A stretch of DNA of 22,633 bases from an uncultured virus (IMG/VR IMGVR_UViG_3300044637_002122) (taxonomy: Duplodnaviria; Heunggongvirae; Uroviricota; Caudoviricetes), in the IMG/VR virus record IMGVR_UViG_3300044637_002122; one strand, 5' to 3'. Made by a program: the position numbers and the translations under genes. Below the pieces are notes generated by a model. The model searched no databases and was not told the origin of the DNA. It saw only the letters and a program-made list of their open reading frames with translations. Position 1 is the stretch's first letter. Every line of letters starts with the position of its first letter. Below are positions 6,959 to 22,633 of the stretch, one piece after another.

Positions 6959-7314
6959 GCCGCACCCTTCGTGACCGCGGTCACGCGGACACCAAGCCAG
7001 CCAAGACGCTCGGCCAACGCGCGGGCGGCGGCGGCCGCGGCCTCCGTCTCGTAGGGCTTCGAGCGAACCTTGGTGGGCCTCGTGTCCCGCATGAAGCGGT
7101 CAAGGTCCCACGGCAGCGGGGCCCTGCCCTGCCCACGAAGGCGCTCACCGAGTTGGTCGTGCGCAACACGACCAGCCTCGATCTGCTCCCGCGGGTAGCC
7201 CGTCACCAGCCAGCCCTTGTGAAAGACCTCTTGTTGTCTGCGGGGTTGCCGCTTGGCCTCCTTGCCCCCGGAGAGCGCCGGAATCGGCTGCCCAAGGTGG
7301 TTCACAAACTCCAT
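6955..7314 (-). CDS. hypothetical protein divergent from the repressor
   Basis: AAGGAG RBS before ATG 7314 (MEFVNHLGQ); ATGA overlap with the next gene. Confidence 0.7.
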   Translation of the reverse strand: MEFVNHLGQPIPALSGGKEAKRQPRRQQEVFHKGWLVTGYPREQIEAGRVAHDQLGERLRGQGRAPLPWDLDRFMRDTRPTKVRSKPYETEAAAAAARALAERLGWLGVRVTAVTKGAA

Positions 7315-7408
7315 TCGATCTCCTTGTAGTTGCGACCTCATTGTAGTCAACAAAAAGTTCGCTTGCCAACAGAACATGAGGTTGGCACCCTTCGAACAGG
7401 AGGGAACA
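7315..7408. promoter_or_regulatory. divergent control region with two near-consensus operators
   Basis: AT-richer gap; CAACAAAAAGTTC 7348-7360 and GAACATGAGGTTG 7372-7384. Confidence 0.55.
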
Positions 7409-7870
7409 ATGAAGATCAAGGATCAAATTCGCGCTAGGCGCGAGCAGCAGGGTATGAGCATCACCCAGCTTGCCGGCGACCTCGGCGTGAGCGACCAGGC
7501 TGTTAGGTACTGGGAGGCCGGTCGCAGCAACCCGGGAAAGAAGATCGCTCAGCGCTTGGAAGAGCGGCTCTCATTCCAGTTGGACTGGACGGAGGGCGCC
7601 AGGCACTCGGGTGACAGACAGACGATGAACGCCCTCATCGACCAGCAGGACATTGACCTCCTGTTGGTCATCTGCAGGCTGCCATTCGACGCGAAGACCC
7701 TGATCGGGGAGTTCGCGCGGATGCACCTTCGGGCCCTGGAGGGACGAGTAGTAGAGACCCGGGAGACCACCTCGCCAGTGCCGCCATTCCTAGAGCGCAA
7801 GCAGGAGCTGAGAAGTGCCAGATCGAAGAGTGAACAAGCCCACAATCGCAATCGCAGAAAGACGGGCTGA
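7409..7870 (+). CDS. XRE-family HTH repressor
   Basis: AGGAGG RBS; IRARREQQGMSITQLAGDLGVSDQAVRYWEAGRSNP. Confidence 0.85.
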   Translation: MKIKDQIRARREQQGMSITQLAGDLGVSDQAVRYWEAGRSNPGKKIAQRLEERLSFQLDWTEGARHSGDRQTMNALIDQQDIDLLLVICRLPFDAKTLIGEFARMHLRALEGRVVETRETTSPVPPFLERKQELRSARSKSEQAHNRNRRKTG

Positions 7871-8057
7871 TGCAGCAACCATCGCGCAGCTGACGAAGCT
7901 GCTGGATGACGCAAAAAGGGGGGACCTTTCTGGGGCCATTGTGGCCGCGCACTACGGCGGCCGCGAGTATGCATACATGGGATCTGGGTCACTGTGCCAG
8001 GACCCGCGGCTCGGGCTGCACGCGGCACTGACCCTTGCCAAAAAAATGTTGCCTTAG
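7815..8057 (+). CDS. hypothetical protein
   Basis: AGGAG 7 nt before GTG 7815; 80 aa overlapping the repressor 3' end. Confidence 0.65.
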   Translation: MPDRRVNKPTIAIAERRADAATIAQLTKLLDDAKRGDLSGAIVAAHYGGREYAYMGSGSLCQDPRLGLHAALTLAKKMLP

Positions 8058-8076
8058 CAACCGAAGAGTGTATAGT
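8039..8076 (+). promoter_or_regulatory. sigma70-type promoter with overlapping operator variant
   Basis: TTGCCT (8049-8054), 16 nt, TATAGT (8071-8076); A-tract upstream; CAAAAAAATGTTG at 8039-8051. Confidence 0.65.
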
Positions 8077-8081
8077 CACGC

Positions 8082-9343
8082 CGTCCGTTGCGAACCGCGC
8101 AGTGCACGCGCATCCGCCGATGGCGGGCTCCTTGTGGGGATGCTGGGTCCCTAAGTGCACACCAGCGGGCTCTGACAAAGCCAAGGCGGTAGGACCGCTC
8201 AGAGCAGCCTCAAGGGTTGCCCAGCCGGGTGGAAAGCCCGACACCCTCTCGGCTTGCCATGGCCCGCGGAGGCCCAGCGAGAGTTGCGACAATCGCCGGC
8301 TCTGAAGCGGGTATCAACGTGGCAAGCCGAGAGGGTGACGCGTCAAGTGCCGGGAACCGTAAGATCAGGTCCGGCTGCAAAAACGCATGGGCTACCTCGA
8401 CGCGCCCCTCAACGAGACCAGCCCGGTGGCCCCGGGATACTGCAGTCATGTCCGCAGACTGCAGGAAGTGAATCAGGCGTAGCTGCCTGTACGAAAAATG
8501 CGGATGGTGTTGGCGCTGCGCCAACAGAGGATGCAAGTTGCGTGGAGCCTGATGGCGTTGAAGCGATGACAGCGACGCAGCACTATCAACGGAACTTTTA
8601 AGACGGCCTGCCGTCAGACAGGAGCAGCGGCAACACGCAGTCTGCCAGCATGAGCTGTGGCGCCCTTCGGTGGGCAGCGCCCGAAAGGGTGGCCTAGCGA
8701 GCAACAGCGCAAGAACATCTGCGTGACCACCCCGGGAGAGTAGCGGGGACTTTCAGATCATCCGGGGCCGCAATTTCTAAGCGCGCGGCAAACAGCAAGT
8801 AAGCGCCTGTTGGACTCAGGCGGGAAGAGTGCAGATCGTCGGGCATGCGGCAGTGAAATGCGGCTCGGCGACTAGGGGCCGCCCTATGTAGCGGCACCCC
8901 GGAGTGGCGCCCGGGCGGATGATCTGAGGGTGGACCGGGGTAGTGACCCGGCGCTGAAGCAGTAGGCGGCTCCGAGGCCTGTGTAAGTACTGGAGCACTG
9001 GCGCGATCACAAAGCGCTTCCACCCTCAACTTTCAGATCAGCGGCGACGCTTGCGCCACACAGGAACGAATGCAGCCCTACTCCACAGTGAACCTGTGGG
9101 CTGCCCGCTGATCTGAGAGTCGCACAGTAAGTGCGGTGCCGCGGGAAACCGGCCGCGCGCGTTGAGCGCGTCGTGCCAGAAGGCCCTCCTTCACAACGGG
9201 GGCGGACGAATGGACACAGGCGGATCGGAGCCAGCTCCCTGCGACTCTCAACCATCAGGCGTGCGCCCGTCTCGGAAAGGGCCAGCAGCGATGCGCAACC
9301 TCCGGCGCTACCCCGGAGCCGTGATGCTCGGGTGCACGCCTGA
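8082..9343 (+). ncRNA. large structured non-coding RNA, or array of RNA modules, of unknown family
   Basis: No convincing ORF; successive 10-20 bp closing helices with G-U pairs on the + strand enclosing multibranch hairpins. Confidence 0.65.
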
Positions 9344-9434
9344 GGGTGCGTAGTTTCAGCGGGAGAACCCGAGCGGTGAGCCGCGGCTCATGTCATGCAC
9401 GGAGACGGTGGTTCGAATCCATCCGCACCCACCA
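9344..9434 (+). tRNA. atypical tRNA-like element with expanded anticodon loop (identity undetermined)
   Basis: Acceptor GGGTGCG/CGCACCC plus A-CCA; D arm GTTT/GAAC; T arm GGTGG-TTCGAAT-CCATC; 22-nt anticodon loop. Confidence 0.7.
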
Positions 9435-9485
9435 TCAAACAACAGGAGACAGACATGCGATTGTGACCAACTACCGGAGCAATCC

Positions 9486-9683
9486 ATGTCTCGCACAACG
9501 CACCACCACCGTCGCCGCTTTACCGAGCGCGGCCACGGCCTGTGGCACCACTTCTGCGACGAAGTGCCGGCGCGCGCCAAGTCCAGGGCGCTCGAGCGCC
9601 TGGCGGTTCGCACGCAGGACCTAGACGATGTCGACGCGGTGCGCTGGCCCCGCGGCCGCAAGCCGTTTTCGTACTACTACTGA
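9486..9683 (+). CDS. hypothetical basic protein
   Basis: GGAG RBS; MSRTTHHHRRR...PFSYYY. Confidence 0.65.
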   Translation: MSRTTHHHRRRFTERGHGLWHHFCDEVPARAKSRALERLAVRTQDLDDVDAVRWPRGRKPFSYYY

Positions 9684-9686
9684 CGC

Positions 9687-9959
9687 ATGCCCAAGTCATC
9701 CCCCGCCAAGCTGAGCAGCCAAGCCGAGCGCAACGCCCGCCCCGAAGAGGTGGCCAAGCGCGTGGCCTACAACCGCAACCGCCGGGAGGCGATCGCCGAG
9801 GGGCGGGTGAAGGTCGGCGACGGCAAGGAGCTGGACCACAAGAAGCCGCTCGACAAGGGCGGCGCCGACACGCGGAGCAACCTGCGCGCGGTGGACGCCA
9901 GCACCAACCGCGCGTGGCGCCGCAGCCACCCCGAGATGTACACCAAGGCAAAGAAGTAG
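9687..9959 (+). CDS. small HNH endonuclease-like protein
   Basis: ELDHKKPLDKGG....SNLR......NR. Confidence 0.75.
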   Translation: MPKSSPAKLSSQAERNARPEEVAKRVAYNRNRREAIAEGRVKVGDGKELDHKKPLDKGGADTRSNLRAVDASTNRAWRRSHPEMYTKAKK

Positions 9960-9970
9960 GGTTTGTCCTG

Positions 9971-9998
9971 ATGCAACAACACTTTGTTGTTGCAGAAT
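9971..9998 (+). promoter_or_regulatory. operator CAAC-N5-GTTG in a putative promoter
   Basis: CAACACTTTGTTG 9977-9989 inside the palindrome GCAACAACA-CTT-TGTTGTTGC; CAGAAT -10-like at 9993-9998. Confidence 0.55.
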
Positions 9999-10022
9999 GA
10001 GGGCTTCGCAACAGGAGCCCGC

Positions 10023-10205
10023 ATGAGCATCTTCACCCACCTCCTCGCACTCTGGGTCGGCGTCTGCGTCGGCTTCGGCTTGTTCGCCATCCTGGCTGCC
10101 GGCCGCCGCGCCGACGATGCCGCCGACGGCGCTGCGCGCGCCATCGAGGCCGACCGCGAGTGGTTCAAGCACGCCACCCGCACCCGCTCGCGCGGCCCGG
10201 GCTAA
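10023..10205 (+). CDS. small membrane protein
   Basis: AGGAG RBS; hydrophobic LLALWVGVCVGFGLFAILAAG. Confidence 0.7.
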   Translation: MSIFTHLLALWVGVCVGFGLFAILAAGRRADDAADGAARAIEADREWFKHATRTRSRGPG

Positions 10206-10213
10206 ATTACTTG

Positions 10214-10241
10214 TTGCGTTCCCAACAACTGGTTGTACAAT
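10214..10241 (+). promoter_or_regulatory. sigma70-type promoter with operator in the spacer
   Basis: TTGCGT, 16 nt, TACAAT; CAACAACTGGTTG at 10223-10235. Confidence 0.65.
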
Positions 10242-10268
10242 TCGTTGTCGCAACAAGGAGTCCAACAC

Positions 10269-11516
10269 ATGGAAGTCGCTCAAGACGCCGCCGCAGAGGT
10301 GGCCACCGAAGTCGTCGATTCGCAGCCCGGCGGGCAGCTGGACATCAAGCGCCTGAACCTCACCGACCTGGCGCTGGCGCAGTTCGGGGACTGGCAGTCC
10401 GCGGTCTCGTCGGTCAAGACCAGCCTGGCGGCGACGGTCATGGATCTGTCCAACGCCTCCCGCATCGACGAAGCGAAGAGCCTGCGCTGGCGCCTGGTCG
10501 GACAGCCGCGCGCAGACGTGCGCCGCATCAGCAAGGACCTCAAGTCCAAGCTGGCCGCGACAAGCAAGTCCATCGGCCAGGCCGAGGAGCAGATCGTGGC
10601 GGCCTACGACGAGGCCGAGCAACTCATCACCCCGCGCATCGAGGCCGCAGAGGCTGAGATCGAGCGCGTGCGCCGCGAGAAGGAGGAGGCCGAGCGCGCT
10701 CGCGTGGCGGCCATCCGCGAGAAGATCAACACGATCTTCGCGCAGCCCGCGGCCTGCGTCGGCCTGCCGTCCGGCGAGATCGAGCTGTCGATCGTCGGCG
10801 TCGAGGTCGTGGCCGCCGACAAGGCATCCTTTGAGGAGTTCCAGGCCGAGGCTGAGGCCGCCGCCGGGGTGGTGCTGGCGAAGCTCCGCGCCATGCTCGA
10901 GGCCGCCCGGGCGGCAGAGGCCGAGGCCGAGCGCCTGCGCCTGGAGGCCGAGCGCCTGGCCGCCGAGCGCGCCGAGCTCGAGCGCCAGCGCGCCGAGCTT
11001 GCCGCCGCGCAGGCCGCAGCCAAGGCCGCCGAAGAGGCCGCTGCGGCGGCGCGGCGCGCCCAGGAGGAGGCGGCGGCGGCCGAGGCCAAGCGCATCGAAG
11101 GCGAGCGCCTGGCCGCCGAAGAGGCCGCGCGCCGCGAGATCGAAGAGCGCCGACTGGCCGCAGAGCGCGAAGCCCAGGCCCAGCGCGACCAGCTGGCCGC
11201 CGAGCGCGCCGAGCTGCGCCGCCGCGAGGAAGAGATCGAAGCTCAGGCCCGCGCGCGCCAGGAGGAAATCGATCGCCAAGAGTCCGAGCGCCTCGAGGTC
11301 CTGCGCAAGGCCGCCCAGGAAGACGCCTTCGCCGCCGAGCGCGCGGCCGCCGCTGCGCAGGCCGCCACCGAGCCCGCGCAGAAGGTGCGCCCGGCGGACG
11401 CCACCATCACCGCCGCCATGGCCAAGGCCTTCAAGGTCGAGCCGATGGTGGCCGCCGAGTGGCTGGGCTCGTACGACGCGATGGCCGAGATCGAGCGCAT
11501 CAAGTCCTCGTCCTGA
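10269..11516 (+). CDS. long coiled-coil protein of the recombination module
   Basis: AAGGAG RBS; Ala/Glu/Arg-rich helical repeats; position upstream of the annealing protein. Confidence 0.75.
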   Translation: MEVAQDAAAEVATEVVDSQPGGQLDIKRLNLTDLALAQFGDWQSAVSSVKTSLAATVMDLSNASRIDEAKSLRWRLVGQPRADVRRISKDLKSKLAATSKSIGQAEEQIVAAYDEAEQLITPRIEAAEAEIERVRREKEEAERARVAAIREKINTIFAQPAACVGLPSGEIELSIVGVEVVAADKASFEEFQAEAEAAAGVVLAKLRAMLEAARAAEAEAERLRLEAERLAAERAELERQRAELAAAQAAAKAAEEAAAAARRAQEEAAAAEAKRIEGERLAAEEAARREIEERRLAAEREAQAQRDQLAAERAELRRREEEIEAQARARQEEIDRQESERLEVLRKAAQEDAFAAERAAAAAQAATEPAQKVRPADATITAAMAKAFKVEPMVAAEWLGSYDAMAEIERIKSSS

Positions 11517-14801: not shown

Positions 14802-15358
14802 AGTCAGACGACCACCTCTACGAGGGTCGCGTCGGCGACTGGATGCGGACGCGGTCTGGCGGCCGGTTCTACCCGCAGGACGTCAGGCCAGGCGACATCA
14901 AGCCGCTCGACATCGCATCCGGCTTGGCGCGCGAGTGCCGCTACGGCGGCCAGATCAGCGGCTGGTTCACGGTGGCAGAGCACAGCATCCTTGTGGCGGG
15001 CCTGCTGCCGCCGCATCTGCGCTTCGCTGGCCTGATGCACGACGCACCGGAGGGCCTGATCAGGGACATGACGCGCCCCAACAAGCGCGCCCTCCCCGAC
15101 TACCAGAAGCTGGAGGACGAAGTCTGGGCGGCCATCGCGGCGACTTACGGCCTCGACCTCGAGCTCGACCCACTCATCAAGCAGGCCGACAACGACGTGC
15201 TTCTCGCCGAGCGCAGCGTGTTCTACCCCAACGACTACACCAAGTGGGACATCCGCGGCACCGCGGCCGATGTCGAGATCCGTCAGCTCAACCCCTGGGA
15301 GGCCGAGTCGGCCTTCCTCAACCTCTTCCACGAACTCACAGAAGGAGCTTTCAAGTGA
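14798..15358 (+). CDS. HD-domain phosphohydrolase (YfbR-like)
   Basis: DIA.GLA..CRYGG....FTVAEHS, LMHDAPE....D...P.K, KQAD. Confidence 0.85.
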   Translation: MKSDDHLYEGRVGDWMRTRSGGRFYPQDVRPGDIKPLDIASGLARECRYGGQISGWFTVAEHSILVAGLLPPHLRFAGLMHDAPEGLIRDMTRPNKRALPDYQKLEDEVWAAIAATYGLDLELDPLIKQADNDVLLAERSVFYPNDYTKWDIRGTAADVEIRQLNPWEAESAFLNLFHELTEGAFK

Positions 15359-16095
15359 CGTCAGATGGCGTCGCCTCGTCGGATGGGGCGCGGCGGCAGA
15401 GCCGTCTGCTCAAGTCATCGGATGAAGCCATGCTTGGCCGCAGGTTTGGCCGACTTGCTGTTGTGGAGCGCGCGGTTGGCGGCGGGAAACAAGACAGATG
15501 GTGGTGCGCCTGCGACTGCGGTGGCGAAACGGTGTCTTTTGGTTTCTCCCTAAGGGGAGGTCAGTCCAAGTCCTGTGGTTGCGTGGCGGCCGAGAAAGCA
15601 AAGCAGAGGTGGTCTGATCCGGCGACGAGGGCGCAACTGCTGGCCTCCTTGCCAACACCCAAGATCAAGCGCCACAGCATGTCAAAGCACCAAGCATATG
15701 GCGCTTGGTCGGGCATGAAACAGCGTTGCCTCAACAAGAAGAACGAGTGGTATCCGGAGTACGGTGGCCGCGGCATTGGCATCGACGAGCGCTGGATGTC
15801 ATTCGATGCCTTCTGGGAGGACATGGGCCCTTCGTGGCGAGCGGGAATGAGTCTTGGCAGGGTAGACAATGGCCGTGGCTACAACAAAGAAAACTGCCGC
15901 TGGGAAACGAGTGCGCAGCAAATGTCAAACACGCGAGCAAACGTGTACATCGCGACGCCGCTTGGTCACATGACACTCTCCGAGGCGGCTCGCACCTATC
16001 GACTGTCGCCAGGCTGCATCAAGTACAGGATGTCTGTCGGCATGAAAGACGAAGACCTAATTAAACCATCGCAAAGGAAGAACCATGACCAGTAG
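15355..16095 (+). CDS. HNH homing-endonuclease-like protein
   Basis: GRRFGRL.V, C.CDCG...KSCGC, MKQRC.N....Y..YGGRGI, R.DN..GY...NCRW; lower GC than neighbours. Confidence 0.85.
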   Translation: MTSDGVASSDGARRQSRLLKSSDEAMLGRRFGRLAVVERAVGGGKQDRWWCACDCGGETVSFGFSLRGGQSKSCGCVAAEKAKQRWSDPATRAQLLASLPTPKIKRHSMSKHQAYGAWSGMKQRCLNKKNEWYPEYGGRGIGIDERWMSFDAFWEDMGPSWRAGMSLGRVDNGRGYNKENCRWETSAQQMSNTRANVYIATPLGHMTLSEAARTYRLSPGCIKYRMSVGMKDEDLIKPSQRKNHDQ

Positions 16096-17661: not shown

Positions 17662-18726
17662 ATGCCGACAATCGTGCGAAGGGGCGACTCGTTCCTGTGC
17701 CAGGTCAGGGTACAGCGCAACGGGGTCAAGGTGTTTAGCGAGTCCAAGACGTTCCCGACAAGCGAGCGGGCCTTGGCATGGGGCAGGCGCCTCGAGGCCG
17801 AGCTCCAAGAGCGCGGCGCGACCAGTGTCTCGACACGCCATCTGACCGTCGGGCAGCTGGTGCTGAAGCACCTGGCCTACCAGCGGTCGCTGCGCGAGGT
17901 TGGGCGATCCTCTATCCACACGCACGAGTCGATAGCCCAGGCCTTTCACAACGTCGGCGTCAACCAGCTGACGGCCAAGCGGGTGGTCGACTATGCGCGC
18001 AGGCGGGCCGCGGAGGGCGCTGCGCCGGCAACGATCGCCGCAGAGCTCTCGCCGGTGCGTGCAGCCTTCCACGCGGCCCCGCACGCCCACGGGATCCGCC
18101 TGGAGACGGACGAGATCGACACCGCTCTGCGCAAGCTGCGCGAGATGGGCCTATCCGGCCGCGGGCGCCACGCCGGCCGGGCCATGACGGCCGCCGAGGA
18201 GGCCGCCCTGAGGGCCGAGTTCGCCAGGCAGCGGGTACACCACCAGGCCGTGATCGACATGGTCCTGTGGCTCGATCTGGCCTTGTCGTTGCCGCGCCGG
18301 CTGTCGGAGCTGGCCAGGCTGCGCTGGGCCGACGTGAACCTCGACCGCGGGATCATCGTCATCCGCGACGTCAAGCACCCCAGGCGCAAGGTCGGCAACG
18401 ATCAGGAGGTGCCGCTGCTGCCGACAGCGCGCGCGGCCATAGCCCGGGCGCCCAAGGTCGACGAGATGATCTTGCCGTGGCTGCCCGGAAGCGTGGCCGC
18501 GGCCTTTGAGCGGGCCCGCGATCGCATCGCCGAGACTGGCATGCCCGGCATCAAGGGCCTGCGGACGCACGACATGCGCGCCACGGGCATCAGCCGGCTG
18601 CTAAAGGCCGGGCTGCCCATCCCGCAGGTGGCCATGATCTCGGGGCACACGAACTGGCAGCAGGTGGCCAGGTACGCGCGGCTGACGGCAGAAGATGTGC
18701 ACGAGTCCTGGGCAAAGCTCAGGTAG
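17662..18726 (+). CDS. int: tyrosine integrase, dusA-associated type
   Basis: AGGAG RBS; catalytic R (PRRLSEL), K (VKHP), HDMR, SGH, Y (ARY). Confidence 0.9.
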   Translation: MPTIVRRGDSFLCQVRVQRNGVKVFSESKTFPTSERALAWGRRLEAELQERGATSVSTRHLTVGQLVLKHLAYQRSLREVGRSSIHTHESIAQAFHNVGVNQLTAKRVVDYARRRAAEGAAPATIAAELSPVRAAFHAAPHAHGIRLETDEIDTALRKLREMGLSGRGRHAGRAMTAAEEAALRAEFARQRVHHQAVIDMVLWLDLALSLPRRLSELARLRWADVNLDRGIIVIRDVKHPRRKVGNDQEVPLLPTARAAIARAPKVDEMILPWLPGSVAAAFERARDRIAETGMPGIKGLRTHDMRATGISRLLKAGLPIPQVAMISGHTNWQQVARYARLTAEDVHESWAKLR

Positions 18727-18898: not shown

Positions 18899-19414
18899 AT
18901 GCCAAAGACTGTCGAGTACCCTTCAAGAGAGCGCCTGCTGGAGGCGCTGGAATACAACCCAGAGACCGGCCGCCTCACTTGGCGGCGCAACGTCTCAAGC
19001 ACTGGCCGCGCCGGCAGCGAAGCTGGCTGCAGGCAGCGCTCCGGGTACACCGTTGTGCGCCTGGACAAGAGGCTGCTGCTGGCGCACCGCGTGATCTGGA
19101 TCATGATGACCGGCGAGCGACCGCCGGAGTGCATCGACCACGTCAATCACATCAAGAGCGACAACAGGTGGGCCAACCTGCGGCGCTCAGACAAGGTTGA
19201 GAACGGCCAGAACCGGCGCGGCGCCCAGGTCAACAACCTGAGCACCGGCTGCCGCAACGTCTACTTCCTCGGACGCGGCAATCGCCAGTGGTTTGTTCAG
19301 ATCCAGGTGCCGGGCGGCAGGGTTCGCAAGGCCTTCTACACGCTTCTCGATGCCGCATGCTTCGCGCAGTCCGCGCGTCTCAAGCTGCACGCCGGCCATC
19401 CGCTCAACGCGTAG
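18899..19414 (+). CDS. HNH endonuclease with AP2-like C-terminus
   Basis: LEYNPETG...AHRVIW....G......IDH.N....DNR..NLR. Confidence 0.85.
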   Translation: MPKTVEYPSRERLLEALEYNPETGRLTWRRNVSSTGRAGSEAGCRQRSGYTVVRLDKRLLLAHRVIWIMMTGERPPECIDHVNHIKSDNRWANLRRSDKVENGQNRRGAQVNNLSTGCRNVYFLGRGNRQWFVQIQVPGGRVRKAFYTLLDAACFAQSARLKLHAGHPLNA

Positions 19415-22400
19415 CGCCGAGCGCCTCGACGGCCCGGTTCAGAGACGCCATCCGCGCCGTGATGCGCTCCTCGATGGCGCGCACCTGGTCGCGGGGCGCG
19501 CCCTCCTTCACCAGTCGCGACTTCTCCTTGCGCAGCTTGGAGATGTCGCGCTCGGCTCGGTTGGCCTGCGCAATGAGGTAGGCGTCAGGCCTGGATGCCC
19601 GCAGCTGCGCGGCTTCCGAGGCCTTGCCGTCCTGCTGCAGGCCCTTGATCTCCGTCTCCAGCTCGTTGAGGCGCTTCACGTTGCCGTAGAAGTTCGAGCC
19701 CTCGCTTGCCTGGCTGGCCGTGTTGCCACCGAAGCGGCCGACCAGCGGGACCTTGAAGATAGGCAGCTCTTCGCCCGTCACCGTGGCGGTGATGGTCTGC
19801 TCGAGCTTTGAGATCTCGCGGCCGACGCCGCCAGTCAGCTGGCCGATGAGGTAGTCGACCTGGTCTGGCGAAGGACTGATCGCCCCAGCCACGTAGTCGT
19901 TGCCGCCGGTGAGTGTGTTGACGCCCTTCGCGATGGCGATGGCCCAAGAGGTCGCGGTGTCGCGCGCCAGGGCGTGCCCCGGCGTCGCAGGGTTCATCGA
20001 CTCGCGCGTGATCGGGCGGCCCTGCCAGTCGCGGTTCTCCGTCAGCGCAACCAGCGGGTCCAGCGCGGTGGGTGCGATGGTCTGCATCGACATGCCAGCG
20101 TTGCCGATCGGGTTGAAGGCGTCAGCGAACATGCCGAGCATGCCGACGACACGCTCGGGCGTCTTGTCGAGTCCACCCATGGCCCACTCCGTGGCGACGC
20201 GGCCAATGTTGGGCAGAACGTGCAGGCCCAGCGGCATCGGTATGGACACGTAGCGACCATCGAACGTCGGGATGATGATCGATCGCTCGCGCATGAACTG
20301 CGGCGGGTCGTCTTCGCCGTAGCCCGCCGCCGCCAGGGCCAGGGCCTGCATCACGCCGATCATCACACCGCCGGCGACGATGCGCTTGCCGACGCGAGAA
20401 AGGCGCAAGGTCTTGATCTGCCCAGGCTCCATCGTGAACAGCAGTTCGCCGAGGCGAGCGGTGCCGGCAGATGCTGCGTTGTAAAACGCAAACAAGGCGC
20501 CGGCCTGTTGCGCTACTTGTCCCTTGCGATTGAAGTTAACACTGGCGTTTTTTGCTAGAGAGGCAGCATTTTCAATGGACATGCCGGACTCTTTCGCCAC
20601 CTTGTAGACGGCGAGCCGCATCGAGTTTTCCAGCGTCTCGTTGTAATCCGAAAGGGCCTGGAAGCCAGCCCTCACAACCTTCGATGCCTTCGACACCGGC
20701 ACCTTCAGCACGCCGTTGGCGGTGAAGACCTTGCCCAGCTTCGAGTCCATCCAGTAGTCGGGATTGATGGCCGAGCGGATGTCGTCGGCGCGGTCCTTGC
20801 TGTCGGCGAACATCTGACGGAAGCCGGTCTGCGCGCCGACGCTCTGGAACTCGTCCCACAGCTTCTGCCGCTCGGTGTCCAGCTTGCCGCTGCGCAGGTT
20901 CGTCCAGATGGCCTTGGTCATGCCCCAGGCTTCTTTCGCCACCTGCGACTGCTTGCCGTCCAGCGGGGTGCCATTCAGGTTGATGAGCACGTTCTGGAAG
21001 TCGCGGATGAAGTTCACGACACCGAAGACGGGGTTCCACTGGGTAGAAATCGCGGCGAAGTACCGAGTCACCACGGCGCTGGCGCCCAGCAGCCCCTCCA
21101 GCCGATCCATCTCCAGGTTCTTCATCACGGCCGCCGTCCGCATGGCCCGCGCGTTGCCCTCGTTGAAGATGACTGCGTGCTCCTTGACCGACCCGTCCTC
21201 CTCGCGGAACTTGGCCACGACGACGTTGGGCCGCATCTTGTACATCGGGTCCGGCCGCTGCACGACGACGCCCTTCTTGGGGTCGTAGGTCGGCGTGGTC
21301 GGCGCCAGGTCGACGGTCCAGAAGTCCCTGTTCTCGTTGTCGCGCGCCAGGTTCACCAGCGCCTGGCCGACACGGTTCTTCTCGCCGCGCACGATCACGC
21401 GCTCTCGCTGCATGGCGATGTTGGCGAAGACGTCGACGACCTTCTTGGTCGAGCCGGTGCGGCTCTTCACCTCGCGGCCCTTGATGCTGTAGCCCTGGCC
21501 AGATCCCAGGCGCTGCGGGGCGTCGCCGTCGTCCTCGCGCATAAGCGGCACGTAGTGCTGGAACATCTCGCCCCAGCCCTTGACGGTGTCGCGGCTCTCG
21601 AGCTCGTAGTCGACCATCAGCTGGCGCGTCTTGGCCAGGATCTTGTCGACCATGGCGGCGACGGCCTCGAGGTGGGCCTTCTTGTCTGCCGCGAGGTCGG
21701 ACATGTACTGCTGCGCGAGCGCGGTGTCGAGGCCGGACCCGCCGTCCTGCAGGAGCGGGCTGTCGGGGTTGCGCTCGGCGATGAGCCGGTTCGCCTCTGG
21801 CGCGTGGCGCGCGTGCAGGTACTCGTCCAGCTCCTCGAGCGTCAGGCCGCGCTTGGCCATCTCCTCGGTCAAGGGCTCGAGCTCGCGCTTGGTGAAGTCC
21901 TGCGTGCGCTTCGCGGCGCGGCCGTGGAAGAGCTCTTCGCGGAGGTAGGTGTTGGCGTCCTCGCTGATCTGCTTGCCGGCCTCCTGGATGGCCTGCTGCA
22001 CGCGCAGGAGGTCGACCTGGCGGTTCTGCATCTTGTAGACCACGTCGTCGAACTTCGACGCGCCAGGGCTCTCCCAGTTGCGCGCGGCGCTGGAGAGGAT
22101 GCTGGGGTCGGTCTCGTCGTAGCTGCCGTCGTTGCCGATGGCGGATTTGATCTGGGTCGGCCAGAACGCGACATAGACCTTTGTGTCGAGCTCGGATGCC
22201 ATGTCATCTGAGCCAGCAATGCCGTCGTACCCCATTGACTGGAGTCGCTCGCGAACCTCCGCGGAGTCGGTCTCCCCGCGTGCGATGGCCCTGGCCATTG
22301 GGTCCCAAACAGACTTCGGCGCCGGGTTCTGAAGCGACAGATAGACCGGCATCAGCACATCGCCGTATTGCTCGGCTTCGTACGGGCTGGATGTGAAGTA

Positions 22401-22633
22401 AAAGCCTTCTGCGATGGCGGAAAAGCCGTCGACCATTCTCGGGTCAAACTTGGAGAAGTCGTCTCCAGTCCCGTGATACACGACGCGCGGCACGCCGCCG
22501 GCGCGGCCGGAAGCGGTGACCTTGCTGCGCTTGAACCAGGCCCTGAACTCCGGCGTCTCGGTGCGCGGGTCGCGCTCGCGGCTCAGCCGCGCATCGCCTG
22601 CCCCCGACTTATCAACCACCACCTTGGCCGGGA
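19404..22633 (-). CDS. large polyvalent (putative virion-injected) protein, 3' part; ART-PolyVal-like and LPD38-like domains
   Basis: Frame is open to the window edge; VYHGT...GFYFT...MPVYL...GYDGI...F.PTQIKSA; C-terminal RERSIIIP....YVSIPMP.G...LP. Confidence 0.8.
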   Translation of the reverse strand, partial: PAKVVVDKSGAGDARLSRERDPRTETPEFRAWFKRSKVTASGRAGGVPRVVYHGTGDDFSKFDPRMVDGFSAIAEGFYFTSSPYEAEQYGDVLMPVYLSLQNPAPKSVWDPMARAIARGETDSAEVRERLQSMGYDGIAGSDDMASELDTKVYVAFWPTQIKSAIGNDGSYDETDPSILSSAARNWESPGASKFDDVVYKMQNRQVDLLRVQQAIQEAGKQISEDANTYLREELFHGRAAKRTQDFTKRELEPLTEEMAKRGLTLEELDEYLHARHAPEANRLIAERNPDSPLLQDGGSGLDTALAQQYMSDLAADKKAHLEAVAAMVDKILAKTRQLMVDYELESRDTVKGWGEMFQHYVPLMREDDGDAPQRLGSGQGYSIKGREVKSRTGSTKKVVDVFANIAMQRERVIVRGEKNRVGQALVNLARDNENRDFWTVDLAPTTPTYDPKKGVVVQRPDPMYKMRPNVVVAKFREEDGSVKEHAVIFNEGNARAMRTAAVMKNLEMDRLEGLLGASAVVTRYFAAISTQWNPVFGVVNFIRDFQNVLINLNGTPLDGKQSQVAKEAWGMTKAIWTNLRSGKLDTERQKLWDEFQSVGAQTGFRQMFADSKDRADDIRSAINPDYWMDSKLGKVFTANGVLKVPVSKASKVVRAGFQALSDYNETLENSMRLAVYKVAKESGMSIENAASLAKNASVNFNRKGQVAQQAGALFAFYNAASAGTARLGELLFTMEPGQIKTLRLSRVGKRIVAGGVMIGVMQALALAAAGYGEDDPPQFMRERSIIIPTFDGRYVSIPMPLGLHVLPNIGRVATEWAMGGLDKTPERVVGMLGMFADAFNPIGNAGMSMQTIAPTALDPLVALTENRDWQGRPITRESMNPATPGHALARDTATSWAIAIAKGVNTLTGGNDYVAGAISPSPDQVDYLIGQLTGGVGREISKLEQTITATVTGEELPIFKVPLVGRFGGNTASQASEGSNFYGNVKRLNELETEIKGLQQDGKASEAAQLRASRPDAYLIAQANRAERDISKLRKEKSRLVKEGAPRDQVRAIEERITARMASLNRAVEALGATR

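Follow-up and report, generated by a model that had tools for sequence, protein, structure and literature searches.

The early region of an uncultured tailed phage raises the question of what 1.35 kb of DNA lying between an early promoter and the early operon is for. The stretch occupies positions 8082–9434, on the + strand, of a 22,633-nt virus record (IMG/VR IMGVR_UViG_3300044637_002122, Caudoviricetes), the whole of which we call the window. A preliminary description, made from the letters alone, had seen in it a non-coding RNA array, a chain of interlocking helices of no recognised family. Judged by comparison with other phage sequences, the array is not one 1.35-kb RNA family but a variable cassette chain of a widespread, unannotated phage RNA system. 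Its helices are kept by compensatory change, the interlock between neighbouring units is conserved in dozens of phages, and tRNA genes abut or sit inside the cassettes.

We asked first whether the stretch is coding. Periodicity of third-codon-position G+C (GC3) is strong in the flanking genes and absent from about 7900 to 9450, positions 8058–9485 carry no coding signal, and the five internal open reading frames (ORFs) tested gave no PHROG match, so the claim that no credible ORF is present held up. We give practically no credence to hidden protein-coding genes. ORFs of 82–164 aa do occur on both strands of the array, but they lack the periodicity of the genome's genes (GC3 of 0.8–0.95) and any PHROG match among the five, and the natural variants described below are structure-shaped, not codon-shaped. 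Known RNA families were likewise not found: the 4227 models of Rfam 15 gave no match at gathering threshold in the whole window and, at E up to 10, chance-level rows only (tRNA-Sec, 17.3 bits against a gathering score of 47; sX14, 16.5 against 80 bits; eukaryotic and archaeal families). That no family would be recognised was thus borne out.

The array consists of two alternating kinds of unit, long hairpins (A) and multi-hairpin modules (B), in the order leader, A0, B0, a less regular part (8415–8745), hairpin h, A1, B1, A2, B2, A3 and a tRNA-like element. Its parts are given here with their pairings; G001 is the virus record nearest to the window.

8082–8164, + strand: 5' leader of small hairpins, GUGCAC...GUGCAC and then ACCA; about 98% identical in G001.
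8239–8340, + strand: hairpin A0, closing helix of 21–23 bp (8239–8261/8318–8340, 21 Watson–Crick and 1 G-U of 23), interior of 56–60 nt.
8331–8414, + strand: module B0, stem GAGGG..CGCGUC/GACGCG..CCCUC (8331–8335/8406–8410 plus 8339–8344/8399–8404, with an internal loop), three inner hairpins, then AAC.
8503–8589, + strand: module closed by GAUGGUGUUG/CAGCACUAUC (GAUGGUG...CACUAUC; 8503–8512/8578–8587, 10 bp including 2 G-U, read from the sequence), then AAC.
8727–8748, + strand: small hairpin h, CCCCGG-GAGAGUAG-CGGGG, directly 5' of A1; identical in G001.
8749–8931, + strand: hairpin A1, ACUUUCAGAUCAUCCG / CGGAUGAUCUGAGGGU (8749–8764/8916–8931), with a 151-nt structured interior.
8925–9030, + strand: module B1, 10-bp closing stem (8925–8934/9019–9028, 10/10 paired) and four hairpins, with loops GUAGUGA and GAUCACAAA.
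9029–9120, + strand: hairpin A2, ACUUUCAGAUCAGCGG / CCGCUGAUCUGAGAGU (9029–9044/9105–9120, 15 Watson–Crick and 1 G-U), 60-nt interior.
9114–9254, + strand: module B2, 11-bp stem UGAGAGUCGCA/UGCGACUCUCA (9114–9124/9240–9250, 11/11 paired), then ACCA; 94% identical in G001.
9251–9347, + strand: hairpin A3, ACCAUCAGGCGUGCGCCCG / CGGGUGCACGCCUGAGGGU (9251–9269/9329–9347, 17 Watson–Crick, 1 G-U and 1 mismatch), 59-nt interior.
9344–9434, + strand: tRNA-like element, 7-bp acceptor stem (9344–9350/9424–9430, 7/7 paired), D arm, T arm GGUGG-UUCGAAU-CCAUC, ACCA end and an aberrant anticodon region.

The A units start with 5' AC-Y-W-UCA and finish with UGA-K-R-GU 3', enclosing 40–170 nt of cargo. The B units have a 10–11 bp closing stem whose 5' strand is the UGAKRGU of the preceding A and whose 3' strand is ACYNUCA; in the window these stems start UGAGRGU and end ACYCUCA, followed by AAC or ACCA. 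Since UGAKRGU both ends A and opens B, one heptamer is complementary both upstream and downstream, and the linkers are alternately complementary: pairing backward, each UGAKRGU extends the A hairpin, and pairing forward it closes the B module. Positions 8331–8340, for example, are common to A0 and B0. The shared GAG(G/A)GT and the resulting competition between neighbouring helices had been noticed in the preliminary description, and the motif GAGRGT indeed belongs to two helices at four junctions (8331–8337, 8925–8931, 9114–9120 and 9344–9347). TGAGRGT has six sites in the 22.6-kb window, five of which fall within 8925–9347.

All nine helices listed at the outset are present in the sequence. 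With loops of 30–220 nt, 8082–9440 contains six perfect stems of at least 10 bp, compared with a mean of 0.36 (maximum 3) in 300 dinucleotide shuffles and 0.75 (maximum 4) in 28 other window segments of equal length; for stems of at least 12 bp the figures are 3 versus 0.03. The chain helices, counted without the 5' leader, total 106 Watson–Crick pairs, 5 G-U, 0 A-C and 4 other mismatches, which supports the earlier suggestion that the deviations from perfect pairing point to the RNA level. Folded in module register, the units have z-scores of −7.85 (A0), −5.27 (A2), −3.01 (A1), −2.77 (A3), −2.73 (B1), −2.61 (B0), −1.97 (B2) and −1.48 (tRNA-like element), values that are not independent because the registers were picked from the helices.

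The motifs CCGGCKCUGAAGC (8296–8308 and 8948–8960) and AGAUCAG (8355–8368, 8753–8760 and 9033–9040) recur across modules, and it is possible that they are shared tertiary-contact or protein-binding motifs. Two other ideas about repeated elements were discarded: CRISPR-repeat mimics and ToxI-type repeats were ruled out, there being no short tandem units, and a clustering of Dam sites comes to 8 GATC in the array versus a rough estimate of about 5.

The strongest comparative evidence comes from module B1, which recurs with exactly the same boundaries (8925–9030) in two unrelated viruses: G002, a 17.9-kb contig in which B1 is the sole stretch in common with the window, and G003, a complete 82-kb phage with terminal repeats. 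In the three-sequence alignment, 99% of the cells of 33 pairs are paired. Eight of these pairs show compensatory change, and none of the five helices lacks one. No shuffle out of 500 had as high a count, and slid controls gave 0–1. Between the window and G002 there are 12 differences, 10 of them compensatory and 2 in loops. The loops themselves (GUAGUGA / GAARCAGYA / GAUCACAAA) are invariant, and the first and last are mutually complementary (GUGA/UCAC). This complementarity hints at a possible tRNA-like elbow. A covariance model of B1 (R1) scores window 8922–9033 at 138.6 bits, the window itself being one of its three seed sequences, and a scan with the two-loop pattern returned 11 stretches, 8 of which matched by chance in AT-rich coding DNA. 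On the 5' side of the G002 cassette lies a sequence that, read by eye, resembles a promoter, and the cassette faces the 3' end of a convergent gene. Covariation, which the preliminary description had proposed to look for, is therefore strong in B1, as it also is in the A1 closing helix compared with G001 and in the hairpin–module interlock of the wider family.

That wider family is defined by B3, the last module of G001, which is also present in G003. B3 has a closing stem, a 5' hairpin with a GGCUGA loop and a 3' hairpin CCGG-AGAUCAGCR-CCGG, and, like B1, it has two hairpin loops that are mutually complementary (GCUGA/UCAGC). AGAUCAG, one of the motifs recurring in the window, is also the loop of this 3' hairpin. 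The 28-nt 3' signature of B3 occurs in 43 IMG/VR contigs, and B3-like sequence in 44 isolate phage records, including mEp460, Stx-converting, Klebsiella, Pseudomonas and Erwinia phages. Of 5426 complete E. coli genomes, 1773 contain a match to the mEp460 stretch, which consists of B3 and a terminator-like hairpin; in 586 the match spans at least 80% of that stretch, and no annotated feature lies under the E. coli stretches among the matches listed (n = 8). The 5' half of B3 is nearly invariant though it lay outside the search pattern; the 5' hairpin stem covaries at three of its five pairs, and the loop–loop pair at a pattern-free position is G-C in 25, G-U in 2, A-U in 1 and U-A in 1. A covariance model built from 30 B3 sequences (R2) recovers members outside its seed: mEp460 at 74.9 bits, Klebsiella phage 6991 at 81.2 bits and a second G003 copy at 53.2 bits. 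Conservation is extreme across hosts of 48–66% G+C, and the neighbours of the cassette are diverse (repressor, integrase, terminase, lysis, baseplate and replication genes). In mEp460 the cassette is placed as the array is in the window, with the repressor gene on one side and the early-left genes on the other, and the B3 of G001 occupies this slot too.

B3 loci also share the interlock. Among the 39 with enough upstream sequence, 30 have a hairpin of at least 13/15 pairs ending in the module's own UGAUGGU, 10 of them perfect, and the inner arms differ by locus while remaining complementary. In the second G003 copy three partners change together, to CAACAAA / UUUGUUG / CAACAAA. As the triple partners vary together with pairing kept, the three-way complementarity itself is maintained. 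The same interlock is found at the window junctions 8331, 8925, 9114 and 9344, and in G001, G002 and G003. The A helices of the 30 B3 loci contain 66 G-U versus 17 A-C, a figure biased by a scoring that counted G-U as paired. Further likenesses concern the surroundings: a small hairpin of the CCCGG-AAAGAC-GGGG type usually stands 5' of the A hairpin in B3 loci, with 8727–8748 as the window counterpart, and a counterpart of A3, ACCAUCACGCAUG.../...CGUGAUGGU, is present in G001, G002 and many B3 loci. Module 8503–8589 has a B3-like look, yet is undetected by R2.

Several observations on individual B3 loci were made along the way. The second G003 copy (L106, 9274–9392) differs wholly in its closing stem (UUUGUUG/CAACAAA), has changes in the stem of its 3' hairpin, and lies 5 nt before a tRNA-Asn that heads a three-tRNA cluster. 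On the opposite strand, small 'hypothetical protein' coding sequences run over the cassette in mEp460 (L156, 2103–2471, _037, and 2513–2656, _036) and in Klebsiella phage 6991 (L157, 1979–2095, 6991_0048); these are probably mis-calls over structured RNA. The G003 array likewise matched no Rfam family, and nine family loci compared with Rfam gave at threshold only tRNAs and one Burkholderiales-2 motif. The latter (RF02917, 76.9 bits; L124, 2088–2162) lies about 300 nt from a B3 cassette and may indicate the host order of that virus.

We next considered how the array varies among close relatives. G001 has 53% of sampled words in common with the window; it is 98.8% identical up to 8170 and similar again after 9432. 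Between these points it carries a mosaic of about 1.1 kb in which 8721–8761, 8764–8828 and 9115–9268 are in common and other modules stand elsewhere. In A1 of G001 the interior is 97% identical and the inner closing helix is wholly different yet still complementary. One X7 contig has 66 nt in place of 8246–9108, another lake-run contig form covers 8524–9449 with 17 changes, a further lake-run contig has B1 alone in a foreign context, and module number ranges from 2 to more than 8. Breakpoints of exchange and deletion lie at or in linkers and helices; natural variants swap or delete modules as units at linkers. At the level of single letters, a variant in run X5 replaces a C-G by an A-U pair (9156/9170, in B2), and the variants at 9021, 9087 (A>G, inner A2 pair) and 9153 (C>T, U-G in B2) all give G-U on the + strand. 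Most of the remaining variants are in predicted loops.

Such modular exchange could mean that the hairpins act as DNA, as folded single-strand recombination sites for capturing and shuffling modules, with the RNA folds secondary. Integron attC sites have this layout, with conserved 7-nt outer cores (RYYYAAC / GTTRRRY) and variable paired stems. The array resembles them in its hairpins with a conserved 7-nt outer part, in inner stems and a centre that vary while the stems remain paired, and in its exchangeable cargo arrays; the breakpoints at linkers and helices, and the scatter over many genomic contexts, fit as well. Still, we regard this as quite improbable. G-U exceeds A-C on the + strand only, which points to RNA, and the internal hairpins and loop–loop pair of B modules covary, although a recombination site does not need them. 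The linkers ACYNUCA / UGAKRGU are unlike the attC cores, no integron integrase was found, and no recombinase is common to the loci.

Searches for more distant relatives were negative within their scope. Neither blastn with 7900–9600 nor megablast with the whole window matched isolate phages. Among 80 viral loci encoding relatives of a downstream 90-aa protein, blastn found no homolog of the array RNA, and no tRNA was found in the 60 of them scanned; GC3 scans of these loci are uninformative below 60% GC. Pattern scans for A-type arms found only the window's own virus, and blastn of the window array against all other loci gathered matched B1 only.

What, then, is the link to tRNA? The last element, 9344–9434, has the acceptor GGGUGCG/CGCACCC with ACCA and a T arm with a UUCRANY loop. 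ARAGORN reports it as tRNA-???, with four anticodon bases in a loop of 8 nt instead of the normal 5-bp stem and 7-nt loop with U33 and a 3-nt anticodon. Rfam tRNA gives no match there and tRNA-Sec only the sub-threshold score mentioned above, and the cloverleaf is lost in the minimum free energy (MFE) fold. The X5 and X7 contigs showed no variant letters at 9329–9438. In G001 a true tRNA-Gly(TCC) stands where the window has this element. In other loci, a tRNA-like (CAU) cloverleaf with the anticodon loop CUCAUAA heads the G002 cassette, tRNA genes lie within a few nucleotides 3' of B3 in G001, L131 and G003, and in L124 a tRNA sits inside the cassette hairpin. Separately, 31 nt of the window's element (9405–9435, T arm and 3' acceptor) recur with 1 mismatch in a 122-nt X5 contig resembling a class II tRNA-Tyr (loop CUGUAAAUC), a match that hints at the origin of the element.

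These features might be the remains of a decayed phage tRNA gene cluster, scarred by recombination and with no present function. The broken anticodon arm, the 31-nt match to the tRNA-Tyr-like contig and the likeness of B closing stems to the acceptor stem (GGGUGGA/UCCACCC versus GGGUGCG/CGCACCC) speak for decay. We consider it very improbable, however: compensatory changes preserve every B1 helix across unrelated phages, the B1 loops are invariant, the interlock is kept in dozens of phages, and the inner modules give no Rfam tRNA signal at E up to 10.

The genomic setting of the array helps to narrow its role. The window covers the early region of a temperate phage from a lake, lambda-like and with about 65% G+C. 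The DNA sequencing runs that contain the array stretch are lake-water metagenomes, and no RNA run was among those listed for it. The neighbouring features are as follows.

Elsewhere in the window, − strand: NinB, DnaC-like loader, replication initiator and T5orf172 protein.
7340–7369, − strand, and 7382–7410, + strand: divergent promoter-like sites from a promoter scan.
7410–7870, + strand: CI-like helix-turn-helix (HTH) repressor gene (Pfam HTH_3, 2.7e-12; PHROG repressor families), ATG at 7410 after GGAGGG.
7815–8057, + strand: 80-aa ORF whose end overlaps the array promoter; no Pfam or PHROG match.
8049–8076, + strand: promoter-like TTGCCT-16-TATAGT, 9/12 consensus match, overlapped by the palindrome GTTGCCTTAGCAAC (8048–8061).
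9486–9683, + strand: 65-aa ORF, the first after the array, with an Arg/His-rich N-terminus (TTHHHRRRF...); no PHROG or Pfam match.
Downstream of the 65-aa ORF: exonuclease, SSB, dNMP kinase, HNH endonucleases and integrase.
17662–18726: phage-type integrase, the sole recombinase found in the window.
19404–22622, − strand: C-terminal 1072 aa of a giant polyvalent protein with ART-PolyVal and LPD38 domains; the ORF exits the window.

The good promoter claimed for the array thus stands as a promoter-like sequence with 9 of 12 consensus letters. Its palindrome has half-sites similar to those between the divergent promoters at 7340–7410, from which we infer that the repressor controls the array promoter. 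HNH-type endonuclease genes are unusually numerous for 22 kb (1305–1820, 2187–2876, 14935–16095 and 18899–19414 are clear, 9687–9959 is weak), which is consistent with the mosaic state of the region. The 65-aa ORF has about 74% nucleotide identity in G001; searched against genome contigs it gave two weak partial matches, which were not used, and its N-terminus resembles the arginine-rich motif with which antiterminators of the lambda N type bind RNA. For the 80-aa ORF, two IMG/VR contigs encode relatives at 99% identity and two short metagenome contigs at 61%; the latter two have a short leader and a terminator and no array. In distant relatives of this ORF (L089, 1110–1330, and L090, 1480–1690), the promoter-like region and the small genes beyond it are separated by only some 190 nt, whose end forms a hairpin with a U run; here a short leader replaces the array.

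With this layout, the array might be a leader acting in cis, in which the alternative linker pairings would form a co-transcriptional switch over read-through, processing or stability of the early-left genes, an RNA-based antitermination or attenuation in place of lambda nutL/N. It immediately follows an early promoter flanked by operators and precedes the early operon; in mEp460 the same slot holds a B3 member and then a hairpin with a U run, and the distant relatives of the 80-aa ORF have leaders of some 190 nt ending in a terminator-like hairpin. Three-way complementarity is a classic attenuator layout and it covaries, and there is no recognisable N gene, just the Arg-rich 65-aa ORF after the array. 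Nonetheless, we think a cis-acting leader unlikely. No terminator-like site is found on the + strand in 7000–10500, the G002 cassette stands alone and is convergent with its neighbour, B3 cassettes lie beside baseplate, terminase, lysis, integrase and replication genes, and close relatives differ in how many modules they carry, from 2 to more than 8. The antitermination relay offered in the preliminary description is weakened by the same stand-alone G002 cassette and by the many unrelated gene contexts of B3.

The explanation we favour, at roughly an even chance, is that 8082–9434 is the untranslated first part of a repressor-controlled early transcript, a polycistronic chain of independently folding RNA cassettes from which the host nucleases that mature tRNA and rRNA would release small RNAs shaped like tRNAs or hairpins. 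During transcription the A helix would form first, and the emerging 3' strand of B would then capture the shared linker from A, as suggested by the B pairing being all Watson–Crick and the outer A pairing containing G-U or mismatches. Capture would leave the AU-richer ACUUUCA/ACCAUCA segment single-stranded. RNase P could then cut at the acceptor-like stems, RNase E at the freed linkers and RNase III on the 16–23 bp helices, releasing discrete stable small RNAs whose probable target in trans would be conserved host machinery dealing with tRNA-shaped RNA. The proposed order of folding, the release by RNases and the action in trans draw on the acceptor-like stems, the embedded tRNAs, the 16–23 bp helices, the stand-alone cassettes and the conservation of B3.

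A number of results weigh against this explanation. In unregistered 150-nt sliding windows the array is no more stable than its surroundings (+ strand mean z −0.63 versus −0.91 outside), full-length MFE is alike on the two strands (−646.6 versus −635.3 kcal/mol), and the first small hairpin (8102–8164), earlier singled out, is not unusually stable (z +0.98). The changes at 9215, 9219 and, taken alone, 8966 break weakly predicted pairs, the last being compensated in G002. Modules except B1 have relatives in their own lineage only, and most of the 1.35 kb therefore has little or no comparative support. With default filters, R2 finds no B3 in the window at E up to 10; the window is thus not a B3 carrier, and its likeness to B3 loci lies in architecture, slot and the presence of the paralog B1. 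The tRNA side is affected too. Of the claim that modules end like tRNAs, it stands that ACCA follows three stems, but it follows just these three, and ACCATCA is frequent across the window, with 12 sites. Among the proposed tRNA mimics, real tRNA arms are confined to the last element, which passes neither of the tRNA models. Finally, tRNA calls within 1.8 kb occur in just about 7 of 44 family loci, which makes the tRNA link a frequent abutment, not a rule.

A more general view can be offered tentatively, and we hold it to be possible rather than probable. Tailed phages of Proteobacteria, from E. coli lambdoids to lake phages, would share an undescribed RNA cassette system made of kissing-loop tRNA-shaped modules, cargo hairpins that sometimes contain real tRNAs, and heptamer linkers readable in two registers. 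Moving between phages as units, such cassettes would couple folding to the host's tRNA-processing enzymes and release changeable tRNA mimics against conserved host machinery, for example as decoys versus tRNA-directed defences. If tRNA-shaped RNAs are indeed freed by host nucleases, this would be a candidate general phage strategy against tRNA-handling machinery or tRNA-targeting defences. Phage non-coding RNAs are poorly catalogued, and a 1.4-kb unexplained stretch now has a testable frame whose architecture ties it to elements in well-studied phages, including the unannotated B3 stretch of so many E. coli genomes. As a folding device, the conserved three-way complementarity of the linkers is unusual and merits structural study, and the covariance models R1 and R2 are usable for annotation.

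How does the array compare with known systems? A literature search found no description of such arrays, of their architecture or of the conserved B3 sequence. GOLLD and ROOL RNAs often have tRNA genes as neighbours, and GOLLD was discovered in lake metagenomes. Both are reported to be large non-coding RNAs associated with phages (PMC12286853). Membership in either was rejected: no Rfam family reaches its gathering score in the window, and the array is made of variable, exchangeable cassettes, not one conserved fold. The closest experimental neighbour is sRNA-17 of E. coli K1 RS218, a 193-nt RNA seen on Northern blot and located in an mEp460-like prophage; its authors reported no Rfam match and treated it as a single ArcA-regulated small RNA, not as a family (PMC7719688). 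Both sRNA-17 and the array are phage-borne non-coding RNAs without an Rfam match, but the window lacks B3, and its array is 3–7 times longer, with other modules and a tRNA-like end. In mEp460 itself, a hairpin, the B3 module and a terminator-like hairpin with a U run occupy the repressor/early-left slot. As a discrete RNA from a region of this kind, sRNA-17 fits the favoured explanation, and it may correspond to this B3 stretch.

DicF, from the dicBF operon of prophage Qin, is a small RNA cut by host RNases from a repressor-controlled early transcript. A repressor-controlled prophage early transcript is its likeness to the array, which differs in showing no Rfam family beyond chance level at E of 10 (that of DicF among them, if Rfam 15 contains it), in having neither an Hfq-type seed nor a terminator, and in its interlocked chain of many modules. 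The stable RNAs C and D (species 1 and 2) of the T4 tRNA cluster are structured non-tRNA RNAs co-transcribed and matured with tRNAs. By description they resemble the array as structured non-tRNA RNAs beside phage tRNAs; to our knowledge the T4 cluster has no alternately complementary linkers. The immunity RNAs C4 of P1/P7 and CI of P4 are processed by RNase P and are complementary to upstream and downstream sites on their own transcript. Position in the immunity region and two-way complementarity are alike in these RNAs and the array, whereas in the array the three-way complementarity, as far as visible, closes modules and does not mask a ribosome site or trigger termination.

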